Program-made: the position numbers and the translations under genes
In this document: one piece after another, positions 141 through 32,945 of the stretch
Layout: each line of letters opens with the position of its first letter
Position numbering within the stretch: position 1 is the stretch's first letter
Notes under the pieces: model-generated
Database searches by the model: none
Seen by the model: the letters and a program-made list of their open reading frames with translations, nothing else
What the model was told of the DNA's origin: nothing
IMG/VR virus record: IMGVR_UViG_3300045988_123769
Span: 1-32,945 of that record
DNA from: a virus
Length of the DNA stretch: 32,945 nucleotides
Reading direction: 5' to 3' (one strand)

Positions 141-326
141 ATGCCAAGCTATGAGCGCAATAAAAAATACGCCGCCGCTTATCGCGCAAAAATTGAGCGC
201 ATAGACGTTTTTGTCCCGCAAGGGCAAAAGCGGATAATAAAAAATCACGCCGCAGAGCGCGGAGAAAGCATGAACGAATTTATAAACCGCGCCATCAATG
301 CTGCCATGCAACGCGAGGAAAATTAA
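141..326 (+). CDS. Ribbon-helix-helix (CopG/Arc/MetJ-like) DNA-binding protein, 61 aa
   Basis: The C-terminal GESMNEFINRAINAAM helix pattern is typical of RHH regulators. A GGGAGG SD lies 11 nt upstream of the ATG. Confidence 0.55.
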   Translation: MPSYERNKKYAAAYRAKIERIDVFVPQGQKRIIKNHAAERGESMNEFINRAINAAMQREEN

Positions 327-334
327 AAAGTCAG

Positions 335-419
335 CAAAAACCCCTTGACAACTATTCCGGTATAGTATATAATAAAGACACGATAAAGCAAGGGGCTAAA
401 GCCCCGAAGGGAGTTAAAA
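335..419 (+). promoter_or_regulatory. Early/moron promoter-leader cassette, copy 1
   Basis: TTGACA (345-350), 17 nt, TATAAT (368-373). The leader has a GGGGC-taaa-GCCCC hairpin (392-405) abutting a GAAGGGAG SD. It is about 90% identical to 31745-31833 and 32636-32723. Confidence 0.8.
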
Positions 420-750: not shown

Positions 751-790
751 CAAAAATAAAAAGCCCCCATTAGGGGGCATATTTTATAAG
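751..790. terminator. Bidirectional intrinsic terminator between the convergent early (+) and late (-) transcription units
   Basis: The GCCCCC-atta-GGGGGC hairpin (763-778) is flanked by an A-run (751-762, which is a U-run on the minus strand) and by atatttta on the plus strand. It overlaps the stop codon of 770-1009. Confidence 0.7.
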
Positions 791-3444: not shown

Positions 3445-4691
3445 TCTCTCACCCCATATAATACAAAATGGCACCCAGGATATATCAGCATACCCGTCCC
3501 GCCTATAGATGTAATTGGCTTCGCCCATAACGTATCACCATACATAGTTCGTTGGTTATCACCTACGGCCCCATACACCGCATAGTCGTGAGCTGTGTCG
3601 TCAGACCAGCCGACGTTGCCGTTTATCTGCGCGTGCTCAATCTGTTGTGCGCCAGATACATCGACATAGTATATAGTGCCGGTTATAGTATTTGTGCTTA
3701 TCTTAGGCCATACCGAGGTATACAGCAATGGGGTAACTCGCCCTGTCGTTTTCCCATTAATCATGGCAAAAGAATAGTTTGGTATGGTGCTTGTACCCGT
3801 GTACGCAGGGAATTTGGCGCATAGACGCGCCTTTTTAAGCCTAAATGTGTTCCCGTTTTCATCGGCATTTATGGTCAATGCGTTAGCTTCGCCGGCATCT
3901 TCGGCTATGGTGATTTCTTTTATTTTTTCCCATTCTTCCTCACCCGGCAGATCCACCGCCTCCCACTCCGTGGGCTTGCCATCCTGCACGGCCTTTACCT
4001 TGATTATCTGGCCGGGGGTGGCGGCGGTTAGGCCGAGGGATATAGCCGTATCAGCCTTGGCAAGGCTTGTCTGCACATCGTCCGCAAGATCGGATTTGGG
4101 TATGCCGGATGCGGGTTTGGTGTACGCCGTTCCCGCTTTTTCAGCCCCGATATTCGTTCTGGCCTGTTCCTGCTGTTCGGTCGTCAGGGTTTGCGGGGTA
4201 TAAGTCACGGCATCCTTGCTACCGCCGCTCGCTGCCGCCTCGTTTATCGCCGCCACAAGACTGCTTTTGTCCTCCGTGGTCAAGTCGGCAAGATTGCCCA
4301 TATCTGCCCGCAGCTGCTCCTCCGCCGTGGGCGGGATTGTGGGGAAGGGATTACCCTCCGTGCCGCCTGTCGGGGCTACGCTGATACGCGCAACGTTTGT
4401 GGTGATACGCGGGATTACATCTCCGTCCCGCGCGGAGTTGCCCACAAGCCATACGCGCCAGTCGCCCGCTGTAAGGTTAAGCTGCTGCTTAGCGGTTATC
4501 TCCCCGCCTGTCACGGTCACTTCGTGCACCGTGCAGCCCTGTCCAAACATGGTCTTTATCTCGCGCCCCGTCCAGTCCTCGGTTTCACACACCACCTTTG
4601 CGGTAAGGTACTGTACGGATTCAGCGGCAAGGGGGAGATATTCGGCGGTCAAAGATTGGTGGTTGGCGGTTAGGGTGATATTGTAGGTCAT
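3441..4691 (-). CDS. Tail fibre / receptor-binding protein
   Basis: 416 aa at the distal end of the tail module, ahead of the lysis genes. No specific motif recognised beyond position and size. Confidence 0.6.
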   Translation of the reverse strand: MTYNITLTANHQSLTAEYLPLAAESVQYLTAKVVCETEDWTGREIKTMFGQGCTVHEVTVTGGEITAKQQLNLTAGDWRVWLVGNSARDGDVIPRITTNVARISVAPTGGTEGNPFPTIPPTAEEQLRADMGNLADLTTEDKSSLVAAINEAAASGGSKDAVTYTPQTLTTEQQEQARTNIGAEKAGTAYTKPASGIPKSDLADDVQTSLAKADTAISLGLTAATPGQIIKVKAVQDGKPTEWEAVDLPGEEEWEKIKEITIAEDAGEANALTINADENGNTFRLKKARLCAKFPAYTGTSTIPNYSFAMINGKTTGRVTPLLYTSVWPKISTNTITGTIYYVDVSGAQQIEHAQINGNVGWSDDTAHDYAVYGAVGDNQRTMYGDTLWAKPITSIGGTGMLIYPGCHFVLYGVRE

Positions 4692-23685: not shown

Positions 23686-24276
23686 TCAGTATTTCACGGC
23701 CTCTCCGCGCGTGATGAAAAAATGTATACCCGCGGTGCATTCGTCCCAACGGTTTTCGTCAAAGTCTGGGGCCTCTGCGATTTCGCCGACACGGTAAACA
23801 AATTCTTTACTAAAATCGCTTGTGATTTCGGTTAAGCCGCTATCAGATCCATCTGAGTAGGTTATGCTCAGCACCTTCGCCTTGCTGCACCGGCATTTAC
23901 GCGATGTAGCGCTGCTACGTTTTGCATTTGCGCATATTTCTAACTCGACAATATAGCCGGAAGCCTTTTTATACCCGATAAACGACCCCGTCTCAGGGCA
24001 CTGTAATGGATAAAAGGCCGTGCGCGCATTCCACGCAATTTTATCGATATTTTTGGCATCGCGCAGGTTGGCACCGCTCAGGTTGGCACCGCTCAGGTCG
24101 GCATCGCTCAGGTCGGCACCGCGCAGGTTGGCACCGCGCAGGTCGGCATCGCTCAGGTCGGCACCGCGCAGGTCGGCACCGCGCAGGTCGGCACATTCCC
24201 CGCCATCCTCACCTCTTAGCCATTTTGCGTGCTTATAGATGATCGCCTTTAATTCCGTATAGGATATTTTTTTCAT
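23686..24276 (-). CDS. Pentapeptide-repeat protein with a phage-type C-terminal domain
   Basis: About 11 consecutive A(D/N)L(R/S)GA pentapeptides ([23 protein letters not shown]...). The C-terminal domain ends [17 protein letters not shown]. Start moved to MKKISYTEL (ATGA overlap). Confidence 0.8.
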
Positions 24277-24436
24277 TGCAGATACTCCTTTATCACTTTT
24301 ATCGCTTCCTCTGCGCCCCTGCAAACAACGGCCTTATAGCCTTGCTCCGCAAGCGCGGTTATCCAGCTTTTTTGCGTCTCGCTCACCGTGCCGCCCTTTT
24401 GCCGTTTTAGTTCGATGTACAGGCCATGATATTCGC
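24271..24436. repeat. 166-bp direct repeat, copy B (partner 22581-22746)
   Basis: As for copy A. Confidence 0.9.
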
Positions 24437-28311: not shown

Positions 28312-29454
28312 ATGGCGAAGCAAAAAGATGGGCGCTACCGTGCAAAAATAACTGTAGGCACGGACGCAAGCGGGAAAAGCATAGTCAAGTATGTATCAGG
28401 GCGCACCAAAAAAGAATTGGAAGCGGCTAAGGCGGCGGCGCGGGAAAAGTACGTCACGGGAGCAAACGCAGTGCCGGAGGGAATACTTTTTGACCGATAC
28501 GCGCTGACATGGTATGAGGTGTATAAGCAGCCGCATATAGGCGTATCCGCGCAAATGTCATACCGCACGGCACTATATAAGCACATCTTCCCCGCGTTGG
28601 CGGGGCGGCGGCTGACGGCAATTACCACGGAGGATTTACAGCGGCTGCTGAACGCCAAGGCCGACACGTGCGCGGCCATAATAGGCAACATATCTACAAT
28701 CCTGCGCGGGGTATTTCAGCGGGCGTATAGTCAGGGGCTTATCCCGCGTGACATCACTGTCGGGCTTACAATTCCGTCCAAGCCAAAGGAGACGCGCAGG
28801 GCATTGACGGACGCGGAGACGGATGCGGTTCTGCGCCTGATGGACGAGGACGGCACGCTAATGCTTGCGCTGCTATATTACACAGGTATGCGCTACGGCG
28901 AGGCTTGCGGCCTGCAATGGCGGCACGTTGACTTCAAGGCGGGGACAATCCGCGTTGAGCAGCAAGCGGCCGGCAAGACGGGTGAGATAGATGCACCCAA
29001 AACTGATAAGTCTGTGCGGACAATCCCCATGCCGCGCGATCTGGCGGACAAGCTGCGCCCCGTGCGCGGGCTGCCGCAGTCGTATGTAGTACCGTCGTCC
29101 ACAGGGTCATATCACCGCAATGCGACGCGATACCGCCTATGGGACGACTTAATGGCGCGGCTATATGATATCGCGCCGGAGATTGACGCGATTGAAAAGG
29201 GCGGGCGGATGATATCGGTCATAACCCCGCATTACCTTCGGCACAATTACGCCAGTGTACTATATAACGCGGGCGTGGACGTGCTTTCGGCGCAGAGGTA
29301 TTTAGGCCACACCAATGCAAAAATTACGCTTGAAATATATTCACACCTTTCGGCGCAGAAGGAAAAATACAGCGCAGAACAGTTACAGGGCGCATTTGAA
29401 AAAAGTTGCCGGAAAGTTGCCAGCCCCAAAGCGCACGGCAACGGCGGCAATTAA
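28312..29454 (+). CDS. int: Tyrosine recombinase (phage integrase)
   Basis: YTGMRYGEACGL (Arg), ITPHYLRHNYAS (HxxR) and LGHTNAKITLEIYSH (His and the catalytic Tyr). Confidence 0.9.
   Translation: MAKQKDGRYRAKITVGTDASGKSIVKYVSGRTKKELEAAKAAAREKYVTGANAVPEGILFDRYALTWYEVYKQPHIGVSAQMSYRTALYKHIFPALAGRRLTAITTEDLQRLLNAKADTCAAIIGNISTILRGVFQRAYSQGLIPRDITVGLTIPSKPKETRRALTDAETDAVLRLMDEDGTLMLALLYYTGMRYGEACGLQWRHVDFKAGTIRVEQQAAGKTGEIDAPKTDKSVRTIPMPRDLADKLRPVRGLPQSYVVPSSTGSYHRNATRYRLWDDLMARLYDIAPEIDAIEKGGRMISVITPHYLRHNYASVLYNAGVDVLSAQRYLGHTNAKITLEIYSHLSAQKEKYSAEQLQGAFEKSCRKVASPKAHGNGGN
29405..29421. repeat. GTTGCCGGAAAGTTGCC, copy 1 (inside the int 3' end)
   Basis: Exact 17-nt match to 29624-29640. Each copy is itself a dimer of AGTTGCC. 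Confidence 0.85.
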
Positions 29455-29659: not shown

Positions 29660-29968
29660 TTACGCCTTATACATATCCTGATATCTTTTTACACGTTCCG
29701 TTTTGTCTATCTGTTTGCTGTGTAAATAGTTATACAGTGTCAGCATATCTGCGGGCGGGTCGCCATGCTTGGCCTTGTAGTCCGATATGGCGCGGGCTAC
29801 AAGGTCGTGCAGCATGGATGCGTGGGTCAGCTCCTGCCCCGATATGGTGTACAGGGTCTGCGCCACGGTCGGCATATCGTCCTTGACCGCAAGCGCCCAC
29901 TTAGCATACTTTTCAGCGTCCGCGATTTCTTCGCAAATCTGGTCGGATAAATCGTTAATCAGCTTCAT
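29660..29968 (-). CDS. Helical protein with a ferritin-like half motif (E...ExxH), function unknown
   Basis: 102 aa. INDLSDQICEEIADAEKYAKWA...GQELTHASMLHDL. A GGAGG SD is embedded in the upstream gene. Confidence 0.6.
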   Translation of the reverse strand: MKLINDLSDQICEEIADAEKYAKWALAVKDDMPTVAQTLYTISGQELTHASMLHDLVARAISDYKAKHGDPPADMLTLYNYLHSKQIDKTERVKRYQDMYKA

Positions 29969-30375
29969 TTTTTAGCCGCCTCCGCCACGGTGGCGACGGC
30001 TCCGCCAGTCAGACCCGTCAAGTCGTTATTCGGCGCACAAGGCGGGTTGCCAAGCAGCTTAAACGTCCCGCCCGTGGGGGTGGTGGCCACCACGGTGCTG
30101 TACTTGGTGCGCTTGCGCATGCTGCACGCTGTCACTTGTGCGCAGCAGCGGTTTGTCAGGGGATACTGCGCCGTGCCTGTGCCGATGGTGATATATACGG
30201 GCGCGGATATGGTGGTGGTATCGGGTATGCTCTGCGCCACGACGATGCAATATTTCTCGCCGTTGGCGTACACTCCTGCGGGCAGATTGATAATAAGCCC
30301 AGTACCCGCCACAAATGTCACGGACTGGGATATAATCAGGTGGGGGCAAAGCTGGCATATATTTTTACAAGCCAT
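29965..30375 (-). CDS. Cys-rich orphan protein (136 aa)
   Basis: N-terminal ACKNICQLCPH and an internal NRCCAQVTAC. AAAGGAGA SD. Confidence 0.6.
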   Translation of the reverse strand: MACKNICQLCPHLIISQSVTFVAGTGLIINLPAGVYANGEKYCIVVAQSIPDTTTISAPVYITIGTGTAQYPLTNRCCAQVTACSMRKRTKYSTVVATTPTGGTFKLLGNPPCAPNNDLTGLTGGAVATVAEAAKK

Positions 30376-30451
30376 AATTTTCTCCTTTCATAATCAAGGG
30401 GCGGTCAAGCCGCCCCGATAGTCACGGCAATGCCGGATGGTGTGTCATGTC

Positions 30452-31078
30452 TTAGCAGCAGCTATTGCCGCAGCCGCAGCCGGAGCCGCAAAACGGGCTA
30501 TTCCCGGCGTTATAGGTGTAGCCGTTGGGGTAGCGTACCACGCCCGTCAGCTGCTCACGCACAAAGAGTTGGTTATTAGCCTGCTCAAGCTGGGCTATGC
30601 GCTGCTCAAGCTGCGCCTTTTCAAGGGCCGCGAATTTTGCGTCGATATTGGCGTTGATGGCATCCATGCCGCGCTGCACGGCGCAGCAGCACTCCGCCAT
30701 CTGGGACTGTATGCCGTTCGCGGACTGCATAACGGTCATATTCGTGGTATTCTGCGCGAGGGCCATTTCCTTCCCCAGCTGGCCGATATTGCCCTGCATA
30801 TCGTAGCCAAGGCTGCATATGCCGTTGCCAATGTTGGTCAAGCGGTCATTAAGCTGGCCAAAATGCTGACCGAAAAGGATTTCCTGCTGCGTCGCTGCGG
30901 TCGCGTACTGGCCGTAGTCACCGTTGCCACGGTTGCCCCAGCCGCCAAAGCCTCCGCCCATCATAGCCAAAAGCACGATAAGAGCAAATATCCAGAATCC
31001 TCCGCCCATGCTACCGCCAAGGCCGTCATTTTTGTCTGTCACGGCGGCGATATCCGCCAAAGAGGGTACATTATCCAT
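30452..31078 (-). CDS. Gly-rich TM / coiled-coil / Cys-tail orphan protein (208 aa)
   Basis: GGSMGGGFWIFALIVLLAMMGGGFGGWG segment, a central ECCCAVQ, a heptad-like AQLEQRIAQLEQANNQL, and the C-terminus FCGSGCGCGNSCC. GAAGGAGA SD. Confidence 0.65.
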   Translation of the reverse strand: MDNVPSLADIAAVTDKNDGLGGSMGGGFWIFALIVLLAMMGGGFGGWGNRGNGDYGQYATAATQQEILFGQHFGQLNDRLTNIGNGICSLGYDMQGNIGQLGKEMALAQNTTNMTVMQSANGIQSQMAECCCAVQRGMDAINANIDAKFAALEKAQLEQRIAQLEQANNQLFVREQLTGVVRYPNGYTYNAGNSPFCGSGCGCGNSCC

Positions 31079-31129
31079 TGTCTTTTCTCCTTCACAATTT
31101 TATTTTTTGGTATATAAATCGCGCGTGAT

Positions 31130-31345
31130 TTATCGTATCTGTGATAAGATGCTTTCAGGGTCTATGCCGCGCTGCTGGCACAGGCTGTAAAACATCTGCT
31201 GGGGGTCACGCCCGCCGAGCATCCGCATTACCTGCTGCATTTGCGCGGGCATCCCCATCATGCTTTTGGCCTGTGCGATTAGCTGCGGGGATATTTGCGG
31301 GGTCTGCTGGCTTCCAGCTTTCATTGCTTGCAATATGGGATTCAT
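31130..31345 (-). CDS. Gln/Met-rich small orphan protein (71 aa)
   Basis: A strong GGAGGA SD lies 8 nt upstream. The sequence looks helical. Confidence 0.6.
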   Translation of the reverse strand: MNPILQAMKAGSQQTPQISPQLIAQAKSMMGMPAQMQQVMRMLGGRDPQQMFYSLCQQRGIDPESILSQIR

Positions 31346-31634
31346 TTAATTTATCCTCCAATTTTGATATTCGTGCCGCGAGGTCGTTAATGTCCACAGG
31401 CGGCGCAGGCTGATACGGCGTGATGGTGTACGGGGTTAATGTAGGATACCCCGCGCTGTCGGTACACTTGTGCCAGACTATGGGCGCGGTGGTGTCCAGC
31501 AGCAGGATGCTGCTATTGGGCGCAAGGCTGTACGCCTTCGCCCCGCCCTCGCCATTGACTTGGGCAATTTCGGTGCGCTGCTGGTACTGCTGGGGCTGCT
31601 GATAGCCGCCAAAAAAGGGGTTAGGATTCCACAT
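31206..31634 (-). CDS. Gln/Pro-rich orphan protein (142 aa as an open frame; the last ~45 aa overlap the next gene)
   Basis: AAGGAGG SD. N-terminus MWNPNPFFGGYQQPQQYQQ. The frame stays open 140 nt into ORF 31130-31345. Confidence 0.55.
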   Translation of the reverse strand: MWNPNPFFGGYQQPQQYQQRTEIAQVNGEGGAKAYSLAPNSSILLLDTTAPIVWHKCTDSAGYPTLTPYTITPYQPAPPVDINDLAARISKLEDKLNESHIASNESWKPADPANIPAANRTGQKHDGDARANAAGNADARRA

Positions 31635-31744: not shown

Positions 31745-31833
31745 TATGCAAAACCGCTTGACAACTATACCGGAATAGTATATAATAAAGCCATGATAAA
31801 GCAAGGGGCCGAAGCCCCGAAGGGAGTTAAAAA
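31745..31833 (+). promoter_or_regulatory. Early/moron promoter-leader cassette, copy 2
   Basis: TTGACA (31758-31763), 17 nt, TATAAT (31781-31786), then a GGGGCC-ga-AGCCCC hairpin and a GAAGGGAG SD. Confidence 0.8.
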
Positions 31834-32565
31834 ATGTTGAACGAGAAAATGATAATGAAGCTTGAGGACGCGGGTTTTAAGCGCTGGACTAAGGGCGATT
31901 ACGACAGGCTTTACATTGACGCTACTGCCTGCGGCCTTGAATGCGACACTTACAAGTCTGGTAATATTTCCTCCGCCACTTTTAACGGCGAGAGCATCTC
32001 CAACGCCCGCGCGGGCCGCATGAAGGCCATGAAAATGTATGTTGATATAGCGACCGGCGAATTTCACGCCGAGCATGCTTACGGTGCTAAGGGCGACACC
32101 GAAATAGCCGCAGCCGCCGAAGCCATCTATACCGCAATCGTCGAGGCCGCAGAGGCCGAAGAAGCTGAGCAAAAGGTTGAAGAAGCCGAGGAAATGACCG
32201 AAGAAGAAAGGCATAGCGCCTTGTATACCATAAAGGAAGGCACGGAGATGTACGAAGACTATGCCAAGCTGGGCGCGCAGTACCTCAAGGGCGCAATTAA
32301 GCACGGCTATGAGATAAATCCCGTCGAATACCATCCTTTTACCGCCGAGCAAAAAGATAATTTTGCCTACTTGCAAGCAAGCTATCGCAAAATCGGTCTT
32401 GCCGAGCTGGTTGAGATGCTAAAAGACCCCTTCTATGCGCCCCGCGAGGACGAGATATTGGAAGCCATATGCCAGGCCCTCGGCCTTATGGATAGGTGGG
32501 AAGATAAAGATTTTTGCTGTGAGGATATCATAGAGACCGCCGAAGCAAAGCTGAATAGCAAGTAA
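31834..32565 (+). CDS. Acidic 243-aa protein: novel N-terminal domain, poly-E/A linker, C-terminal domain paralogous to ORF 420-704
   Basis: It sits behind cassette copy 2. The linker reads EAAEAEEAEQKVEEAEEMTEEE. The C-terminal IKEGTEMYEDYA...ILEAICQALG...DKDFCCEDIIETAEAK parallels ORF 420-704. Confidence 0.75.
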   Translation: MLNEKMIMKLEDAGFKRWTKGDYDRLYIDATACGLECDTYKSGNISSATFNGESISNARAGRMKAMKMYVDIATGEFHAEHAYGAKGDTEIAAAAEAIYTAIVEAAEAEEAEQKVEEAEEMTEEERHSALYTIKEGTEMYEDYAKLGAQYLKGAIKHGYEINPVEYHPFTAEQKDNFAYLQASYRKIGLAELVEMLKDPFYAPREDEILEAICQALGLMDRWEDKDFCCEDIIETAEAKLNSK

Positions 32566-32635
32566 AAAGAAGCGCTTCTATCATTATAGTACCACCGGGC
32601 GTGCAAAAGTCAACGGAAAAATATTTTTTCAAAAG

Positions 32636-32723
32636 AAAGCAAAACCCCTTGACAACTATACCGGAATAGTATATAATAAAGGCACAATAAAGCAAGGGGC
32701 TAAAGCCCCGAAGGGAGTTAAAG
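32636..32723 (+). promoter_or_regulatory. Early/moron promoter-leader cassette, copy 3
   Basis: TTGACA (32649-32654), 17 nt, TATAAT (32672-32677), followed by the same hairpin and SD. Confidence 0.8.
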
Positions 32724-32906
32724 ATGGAAAACATAGTAAATGTAAACGGCAACGAAGTAAGCATGGACGCAGCGGTTATGCTGATGGATGACGAGATCCG
32801 CGAAGCGATACACTCTGACATCGCGCCCTGCACGGAGCAGGAATTTGTGGACGAGTACTGCAAGCGCCACTTTGAAAAGTACGGCGAAGATTTTATCGTA
32901 ATGTGA
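32724..32906 (+). CDS. Acidic 60-aa protein sharing the YGEDFI motif with ORF 420-704
   Basis: It sits behind cassette copy 3. 15 D/E against 4 K/R. GGCGAAGATTTTATC is identical at nucleotide level to 468-482. Confidence 0.75.
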   Translation: MENIVNVNGNEVSMDAAVMLMDDEIREAIHSDIAPCTEQEFVDEYCKRHFEKYGEDFIVM

Positions 32907-32945
32907 GACAGGGCAAACGGGCGGGCAATGCCCGCCCACCCAGAG
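32827..32945. repeat. Terminal direct repeat, copy 2 (identical to 1-119)
   Basis: Exact match. Confidence 0.95.

Follow-up and report, generated by a model that had tools for sequence, protein, structure and literature searches.

A candidate repressor-controlled anti-defence island built around an AcrIC5 homologue in a temperate phage of human-gut Bacillota

The virus genome held as IMG/VR record IMGVR_UViG_3300045988_123769 (positions 1 to 32,945, analysed at its full length of 32,945 nucleotides and referred to below as the window) raises the question of why a phage would place small, strongly acidic proteins behind copies of one promoter cassette, with a gene for a ribbon-helix-helix (RHH) protein among them. 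The original prediction, made from the letters of the window, had described three acidic open reading frames (ORFs) as a paralogous family of candidate DNA mimics or (anti-)defence proteins of no characterised family. The genes concerned encode, in order on the plus strand, the proteins called here A243, B60, RHH61, and C94 (Table 1). The analysis favors, with a probability of about 0.7, the reading that these four genes constitute a repressor-controlled anti-CRISPR and anti-defence island flanked by the integrase arm and the lysis cassette of the phage. The earlier observation was thereby confirmed in part, and its interpretation supported in part.

The genes seem at first to lie far apart, at opposite ends of the window. 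The first 119 nucleotides are identical to the last 119 (1-119 = 32827-32945), which makes the record an assembly of about 32.8 kb, either circular or terminally redundant, in which features near both ends are physically adjacent, and the C94 gene is contiguous with those of A243 and B60. The net charges of the four products along this block are -23 (A243), -11 (B60), +4 (RHH61), and -17 (C94); the length and charge first given for C94 came out the same on recomputation.

The locus is anchored by B60, which belongs to the AcrIC5 family of anti-CRISPR (Acr) proteins. It matches the Pfam AcrIC5 model PF22147 along the whole profile (1-53 of 53; E 3.1e-23; 82.1 bits, cut-off 27) and the crystallised AcrIC5 (PDB 7yhr) with E 6.3e-10, and is identical to the latter at 26/56 residues (46%). 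The claim that no characterised family is present was thus wrong for B60, and the anti-defence reading gained a full-length AcrIC5 homologue within a locus that has the anatomy of a set of acr-aca operons. AcrIC5 blocks type I-C CRISPR interference (CRISPRi), that is, DNA binding, and has known homologues in Firmicutes and Actinobacteria; the Pseudomonas protein is also active against the type I-C system of Eggerthella lenta, a gut bacterium (Leon et al., 2021; PMC7913775). An AlphaFold 3 (AF3) model places AcrIC5 on the site of Cas8c that binds the protospacer-adjacent motif (PAM), and its acidity has been stressed in the same work (preprint 10.1101/2025.06.06.658234). By analogy, B60 most likely blocks target-DNA binding by a type I-C Cascade of the host. 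Clear AcrIC5 homologues, 55-61% identical to B60, are also encoded by unannotated ORFs in two gut Microviridae (KT264799.1, Gokushovirus WZ-2015a, locus L037, 756-956; MG945373.1, 3784-3951). The gokushovirus ORF, of 66 residues, lies between VP4 and VP5, and an anti-CRISPR in a 5-kb single-stranded DNA phage would be notable in its own right.

As originally proposed, the three acidic ORFs stand behind duplicated promoter cassettes. Three copies of one cassette lie upstream of A243, B60, and C94, each composed of TTGACA, a 17-nucleotide spacer, TATAAT, about 30 nucleotides, the hairpin GGGGCyrAAGCCCC, the strong ribosome-binding site GAAGGGAG, and ATG, and all three promoters match the sigma-70 consensus at 12/12 positions, where shuffled sequence would yield 0 such matches. 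The spacer of each promoter is filled by the 16-bp near-palindrome ACTATWCCGGWATAGT, which occurs three times in 33 kb (0.01 expected by chance) and never outside the cassettes. The RHH-like gene does lie among the acidic ORFs, and no promoter separates it from B60, whose stop at 32906 becomes position 87 after closure, with the RHH61 start at 141. RHH61 comes after B60 and lacks its own promoter, which gives A243, B60-RHH61, and C94 as the transcription units.

RHH61 therefore sits where an aca gene would be found in the B60 operon. Its assignment to the RHH fold is moderately supported by sequence comparison: eight RHH-type Pfam families (including RHH_1, RHH_5, RHH_7, Antitox_RHH, and RepB-RCR_reg) are matched at sub-threshold E values of 0.008-0.18, PHROGs returns phrog_13890 at E 3e-14 and the Arc-like repressor phrog_582 at E 7e-4, and 36 residues are 50% identical to a protein of Flavonifractor phage Chenonceau that is annotated as an Arc-like repressor. 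RHH61 has no match among PDB sequences, and no relatives were found when sought in IMG/VR; in the collection, 127 blocks contain the exact protein. The genes also travel together, as the co-occurrence in related sequences bears out, for AcrIC5, RHH61, and C94 are kept in this order in 10/10 places read, with A243 present in 6/10 and absent in 4/10.

What links RHH61 to the cassettes is the way in which regulator and operator vary. In the 12 sequences that carry RHH61 or the near-identical copy of contig L001 (the window, L001, and L038-L047), 29/29 cassettes contain the ACTATWCCGGWATAGT palindrome in the promoter spacer. The same arm and cassette scaffold are kept in three related phage contigs and one prophage from a metagenome-assembled genome, and in these both regulator and operator differ. 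L005 encodes a 64-residue basic protein in the aca position, with no BLASTP similarity to RHH61, and has the palindrome TAGGTATATACCTA in the spacer; L006, L036, and L003 encode a 159-residue HTH_3 protein and have TTTGTCA-N11-TGACAAA over the -35 element, with no spacer palindrome. Three regulator classes thus match three operator classes on one constant scaffold, which is the pattern expected if the small protein represses all cassettes, and we infer that RHH61 is a candidate repressor of the three promoters of the window.

RHH61 also weakly matches antitoxin and RepA/CopG-type RHH families, as would suit a toxin-antitoxin or plasmid-type copy-control pair formed by B60 and RHH61, with the acidic ORFs unrelated to it. 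That reading was rejected and is highly improbable: B60 is a full-length AcrIC5 homologue, no toxin family was matched, the same operator is present in two further units, and the gene order, a small acidic protein followed by the RHH protein, is the reverse of that usual in RHH-antitoxin operons.

The hairpin between each promoter and ribosome-binding site is present in all cassette classes, with stem variants GGGCGACAAGCCC and GGGGCTAAAGTCCC, and folds as predicted while leaving the ribosome-binding site free. It was considered as an RNA operator specific to the Aca protein and rejected in that role since it is kept in all three regulator classes, which points to a general leader element serving mRNA stability or insulation. 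Because a T-rich run follows, the three hairpins of the window also read as intrinsic terminators on the minus strand, and could insulate the island from antisense transcription and stabilise the sense mRNAs.

The remaining question is what C94 and A243 contribute. C94 had been aligned by eye with the C-terminal part of A243, and this paralogy holds as a distant one. BLASTP detects a 14-residue motif only (E 0.015); the Smith-Waterman score against the A243 C-terminal domain is 57, compared with 28.7 +/- 5.1 for shuffled sequences, and is reached by 4/5000 shuffles; hhalign pairs 67 collinear columns at 30% identity (E 0.0018, probability 15%, from shallow profiles). A 61-residue protein in the C94 slot of phage L006 bridges the two when searched against a set of 1935 sequences, matching A243 (2e-3) and the C94 relative P0008 (8e-3) as well as the C-termini of other proteins that share the N-terminal domain of A243 (P0025, 5e-12; P0058, 3e-6; P0033, 4e-4). 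C94 and the C-terminal domain of A243 are accordingly regarded, on sequence grounds, as real but distant paralogues. The proposed family of three acidic paralogues survives for this pair and does not extend to B60, an AcrIC5 protein, or to the N-terminal 85 residues of A243, which form a separate neutral domain.

The unit common to C94 and A243 is an acidic three-helix module of about 55 residues, here called the LC-module (consensus …EIA..IRN..EWD..LC.ELCELAGM..EWE.ADGETFE.VVY.AAEKLGVEI). Its profile recovers at least 433 clusters (90% identity) at E <= 1e-3, nearly all of them stand-alone proteins of 57-79 residues with no Pfam domain or name, and the canonical members match nothing in Pfam, PHROGs, NCBIfam, or PDB sequences. 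Other LC-module genes occur in similar small-gene islands beside lysis genes, with a helix-turn-helix (HTH) gene nearby. Two such genes can share one island or phage genome (L054, 3501-3704 and 5172-5375; L051/L052, one 167-kb contig), and in L054 they flank an HTH gene beside a prophage lysis cassette, mirroring the arrangement in the window. Full-length relatives of C94, in contrast to the widespread module, form only eight clusters among 5.8 billion proteins. One of them, P0002 on contig L001, is an in-frame fusion of C94 to AcrIC5 (…LNR joined to VNVNGNEV…) that has this cassette in front of it and the RHH gene of the island directly following.

The AlphaFold2 (AF2) model of C94 is confident, with a predicted local distance difference test score (pLDDT) of 87.6 and a predicted template modelling score (pTM) of 0.74. 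Foldseek found no PDB match for it (best E 1.4; 7YHR is absent among the 50 matches listed) or for the A243 model (best E 1.1), and neither protein has a match in Pfam, PHROGs, NCBIfam, or PDB sequences; searched against BFVD, the A243 model retrieves only uncharacterised proteins of gut viromes. These results bear on the comparison with Ocr and ArdA made in the original prediction, according to which C94 and A243 would be DNA mimics that block restriction-modification or BREX. Both are small and extremely acidic (isoelectric points 4.05 for C94 and 4.59 for A243) and contain small helical modules, and for the neighboring AcrIC5, too, a site of DNA binding has been proposed as the point of action (preprint 10.1101/2025.06.06.658234). 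Acidity, the only basis of the comparison, is nonetheless common among Acr proteins of other mechanisms, and no ArdA, Ocr, or other DNA-mimic similarity in sequence or fold was detected in Pfam, PHROGs, NCBIfam, PDB sequences, or Foldseek against the PDB, which leaves an Ocr/ArdA-type role improbable.

A243 has a different architecture from C94 in that its LC-module is preceded by an N-terminal domain, here the N-module. In the AF2 model residues 1-85 are very confident, with two helices and seven strands, as is the linker helix 89-119. The N-module carries the motif GFKRWTKG..DRLYI...YKSGNIS...GE.ISN...K.YIDIATGE and has no match in Pfam (A243 and 12 members searched), PHROGs, NCBIfam, or the PDB. 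A profile search of 1.84 billion representatives (clusters at 50% identity) found at least 1560 at E <= 1e-3, 673 of them at E <= 1e-10. It occurs as a stand-alone protein of about 100 residues, in forms that bear Phage_Gp111 as an N-terminal add-on, in fusions of 150-330 residues, and in two giant proteins of 3618 and 3780 residues that also contain SLT, ddrB-ParB, and LPD3 domains, with LPD38 in the larger. In these giants (P0152 and P0164), which are polyvalent proteins of the phage type, it lies at about residues 1688-1784, between ddrB-ParB and LPD3 and just ahead of the latter. Cultured phages of Limosilactobacillus fermentum and Rathayibacter encode the N-module too, annotated as hypothetical.

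Relatives of A243 have residues 1-85 and the acidic helix in common and diverge completely after AEAEE. The N-modules of P0011-P0013, for example, are 93-95% identical to that of A243, whereas their C-terminal domains are unrelated; the A243 C-terminal domain is in turn found as a stand-alone gene product of 134 residues (P0015). The acidic linker is therefore the breakpoint at which C-terminal domains swap between near-identical N-modules. Among 161 N-module proteins analysed, 40 are stand-alone forms and 103 have tails of at least 50 residues, which fall into 68 sequence clusters; 97% of these 103 tails are net acidic (mean -0.13 per residue), whereas the N-module itself is neutral. Three tails, in separate clusters (P0021, P0050, and P0063), are AcrIC5 domains, and five full-length N-module proteins end in LC-modules (P0009, which is A243, P0010, P0025, P0033, and P0058).

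These fusions help to decide whether B60 is the sole anti-defence gene of the locus, with C94 and A243 as co-regulated accessory proteins of the early or lysogenic stage, with some other task, such as excluding superinfecting phages, taking over the host, or inhibiting a host DNA-binding protein, in an arm that tolerates cargo. Such a division would agree with the lack of homology or fold likeness between C94 or A243 and known anti-defence proteins, with the many unannotated small early genes among which canonical LC-module genes sit, and with the defence-type cargo (McrBC, ResIII/restriction endonuclease) borne by the same arm in relatives. It is nevertheless judged unlikely, given the in-frame fusions of C94 to AcrIC5, of N-module to AcrIC5, and of N-module to LC-module, the operator that all units have in common with the acr operon, and the presence of the N-module inside polyvalent conflict proteins. 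C94 and A243 are counted as island cargo on account of these fusions, the shared cassette, their co-travel with AcrIC5 and RHH61, the exchange of slot contents among relatives, the polyvalent context, the acidity of the tails, and the similar islands that house other LC-module genes; C94 and the C-terminal domain of A243 are, from these associations, most likely further inhibitors of host immunity.

The shared segment YGEDFI, cited in the original prediction as a sign of family membership of B60, has another explanation. The 15 identical nucleotides that B60 and C94 have in common are in frame in both genes, and an identity of this length was reached by 0/2000 codon shuffles. Similarity between the two proteins is limited to 11 residues (YEQYGEDFIPM versus FEKYGEDFIVM), and the AcrIC5 alignment shows G-E-(D/E)-F near the C-terminus to be a family-wide motif. 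B60 was consequently rejected as a global paralogue of C94, and also as a paralogue of A243, where the score is reached by 964/5000 shuffles. The segment is read as a footprint of recombination or gene conversion, or as a shared short motif. At the level of whole genes, two of the loci that lack A243 (L041 and L045) have, at position 3683, a hybrid cassette in which an A243-type leader (AAAGCCATG...GGGGCCGAAGCCCC) is joined to the B60 start, which shows that homologous recombination between two cassettes removed A243. As repeats, the cassettes serve as substrates of recombination through which genes are gained and lost.

Relatives differ in what fills the middle slot: in some it is AcrIC5, in others a 139-residue plus a 218-residue protein, or a 202-residue protein, of phrog_16123 (L005, 4908-6004; L006, 4977-5585; L036, 4619-5227). 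The phrog_16123 proteins are Cys-rich and zinc-ribbon-like, with the N-terminus MKY[DE]VKFSCGHTA...CPxCY; by the logic of the shared cassette, their genes too are candidates for an anti-defence role.

The proposed mechanism can be put together as follows. The three cassettes, each driving one unit, would fire once the phage DNA has entered, or weakly in the lysogen. RHH61 made from the middle unit would accumulate, bind the spacer palindrome, and shut all three promoters after the initial burst. This circuit would follow Aca logic, specifically that of Aca14, the first RHH-type Aca, which binds an inverted repeat in its own promoter and also represses a neighboring anti-defence operon (NAR 2026; PMC13551039). 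B60 would block target-DNA binding by type I-C Cascade, C94 and the tail of A243 would inhibit the same or another defence, and the N-module may position or deliver its tail or add a second activity (targeting, oligomerisation, delivery, or second inhibition).

Several observations weigh against this proposal. No known Acr or anti-defence protein resembles C94, the LC-module, or the N-module in sequence or fold, so that their assignment is one of association and fusion. The paralogy of C94 and A243 is statistically modest at an hhalign probability of 15%, the AF2 model of A243 is poor for residues 125-186, and the C94-AcrIC5 fusion comes from a single metagenomic contig. On the regulatory side, the RHH assignment leans on sub-threshold Pfam matches, and the co-variation of regulator and operator comprises only three independent classes. 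A scan of genome contigs with the N-module profile, finally, gave only three distant loci and did not pin down the host.

A bolder extension, doubtful when its two parts are taken jointly, is that the N-module is a general carrier for polymorphic anti-defence effectors and the LC-module a large unrecognised anti-CRISPR or anti-defence family of gut Bacillota phages. The neutral head would then have been recombined at the acidic linker with dozens of unrelated acidic inhibitor domains, AcrIC5 and the LC-module included, and the head would deliver or position them, for example through virion packaging and co-injection with the DNA, by analogy with what has been proposed for polyvalent proteins, or through docking on a common host or phage structure.

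Table 1. Features of the island and its parts, in coordinates of the window (.., from..to; aa, amino acid residues)
Feature	Position	Strand	Description	Basis or remark
Promoter cassette 1	31758..31786	+	operator ACTATACCGGAATAGT at 31764-31779	12/12 consensus
5' untranslated region hairpin of A243	31805..31818	+	GGGGCCGAAGCCCC, just before ribosome-binding site GAAGGGAG	
A243	31834..32565	+	243 aa, two domains, net charge -23	identical protein on 25 contigs (P0009)
N-module of A243	31834..32088	+	aa 1-85, neutral, beta-rich	AF2 pLDDT 91-95
Acidic helical linker of A243	32098..32190	+	aa 89-119, ...AIVEAAEAEEAEQKVEEAEE...	AF2 helix
C-terminal domain of A243	32191..32562	+	aa ~120-243	distant paralogue of C94
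LC-module of A243	32404..32556	+	aa 191-241	
Promoter cassette 2	32649..32677	+	operator ACTATACCGGAATAGT at 32655-32670	12/12 consensus
5' untranslated region hairpin of B60	32696..32709	+	GGGGCTAAAGCCCC, ahead of ribosome-binding site	
B60	32724..32906	+	60 aa, AcrIC5 family, net charge -11	PF22147, PDB 7yhr
15-nucleotide stretch shared by B60 and C94	32883..32897	+	GGCGAAGATTTTATC in B60, equal to 468-482 in C94	in frame in both, G-E-D-F-I
RHH61	141..326	+	61 aa, basic, RHH-like	aca position of the B60 operon
Promoter cassette 3	345..373	+	operator inverted, ACTATTCCGGTATAGT, at 351-366	12/12 consensus
5' untranslated region hairpin of C94	392..405	+	GGGGCTAAAGCCCC, ahead of ribosome-binding site	
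C94	420..704	+	94 aa, net charge -17	N-terminal beta/alpha extension, then LC-module
LC-module of C94	534..698	+	aa 39-93	
Bidirectional terminator-like hairpin	763..778	.	closes the island	sequence

The surroundings of the block identify the phage as a temperate, siphovirus-like phage of human-gut Bacillota. On one flank lies a tyrosine integrase gene (28312-29454) followed by four unannotated minus-strand genes; on the other lie a 79-residue gene, two small genes that occupy the holin position and whose products resemble membrane proteins but have no Pfam match, and an endolysin with NlpC/P60 and PG_binding_1 domains. The large terminase shares 63% identity with its counterparts in phages of Caldibacillus, Bacillus, and Terrisporobacter, and the closest record, MT835524.1, is a phage scaffold from human faeces that carries no annotation. 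An Rfam scan of the window found no family. The four conserved genes between integrase and island (29660-31634, minus strand) encode Cys-, Gly-, and Gln-rich proteins of 102, 136, 208, and 142 residues, one ending in ...CGSGCGCGNSCC; they have no Pfam match and are retained in every relative examined.

The integrase side of the arm carries, in relatives, McrBC, a 961-residue ResIII/restriction-endonuclease protein, or an RNase_T exonuclease (L039, 1-1263; L042, 1-759; L038, 1-90; L041, 1-137), and this cargo indicates that defence-type and anti-defence genes share one variable prophage arm; L039, on a 270-kb contig, would be an integrated copy. Elsewhere in the window, the minus-strand ORF 23686-24324 encodes a pentapeptide-repeat protein, and a stretch of about 140 nucleotides within it (24053-24194) matches P22-like phages of Salmonella and Edwardsiella at 91-93% identity. 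Since proteins with pentapeptide repeats are classical DNA mimics, this ORF, with its odd cross-phylum DNA match, may be another anti-defence candidate.

If the proposed explanation is true, the phages of human-gut Clostridia, a poorly studied group, would gain a concrete anti-CRISPR locus anchored by a known Acr, and its RHH-type regulator would be only the second such class after Aca14. Two large unannotated families would have been flagged by the strongest criteria that computation offers, namely in-frame fusion to a validated Acr family, a shared operator, and cassette swapping, and an N-module that serves as a delivery or docking device would bear on the long-standing problem of how Acr proteins can work soon enough once a cell is infected. 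Both the AcrIC5 gene and the RHH regulator add members to known kinds. What sets the locus apart from other acr-aca islands is its LC-module, the N-module with polymorphic acidic tails, and the triple cassette with exchangeable genes, and these also supply well-anchored candidates for new anti-defence families.

Comparison with known systems makes this division clearer. Like AcrIC5 of Pseudomonas delhiensis (7YHR), B60 is an acidic protein of 60 residues that aligns over the full length, keeps the C-terminal G-E-(D/E)-F, and is encoded directly upstream of a small, presumably DNA-binding regulator; it differs in coming from a gut Bacillota phage and not from Pseudomonas, in its RHH-like partner in place of Aca1, and in that relatives fuse the domain to C94 or the N-module. 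RHH61 resembles Aca14 (NAR 2026; PMC13551039) as a small RHH-like protein encoded after an acr gene, with an inverted repeat inside the promoter that recurs upstream of neighboring candidate anti-defence units, although the putative operator lies here in the spacer between -35 and -10 instead of over the -10 element. The polyvalent proteins of phages and conjugative elements, for which a role as injected conflict proteins has been suggested (Iyer et al., 2017; PMC5512222), harbor the N-module of A243 within their large members, and this module, like LPD domains, is also found alone or in short fusions. It matches no LPD model in Pfam, however, and nothing on polyvalent/anti-CRISPR fusions was found in the literature; A243, moreover, is a protein of two domains and 243 residues that is expressed separately, behind an early-type promoter, whereas the polyvalent proteins are giant virion proteins. 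In its constant N-module and swappable acidic tail, A243 resembles polymorphic toxin systems.

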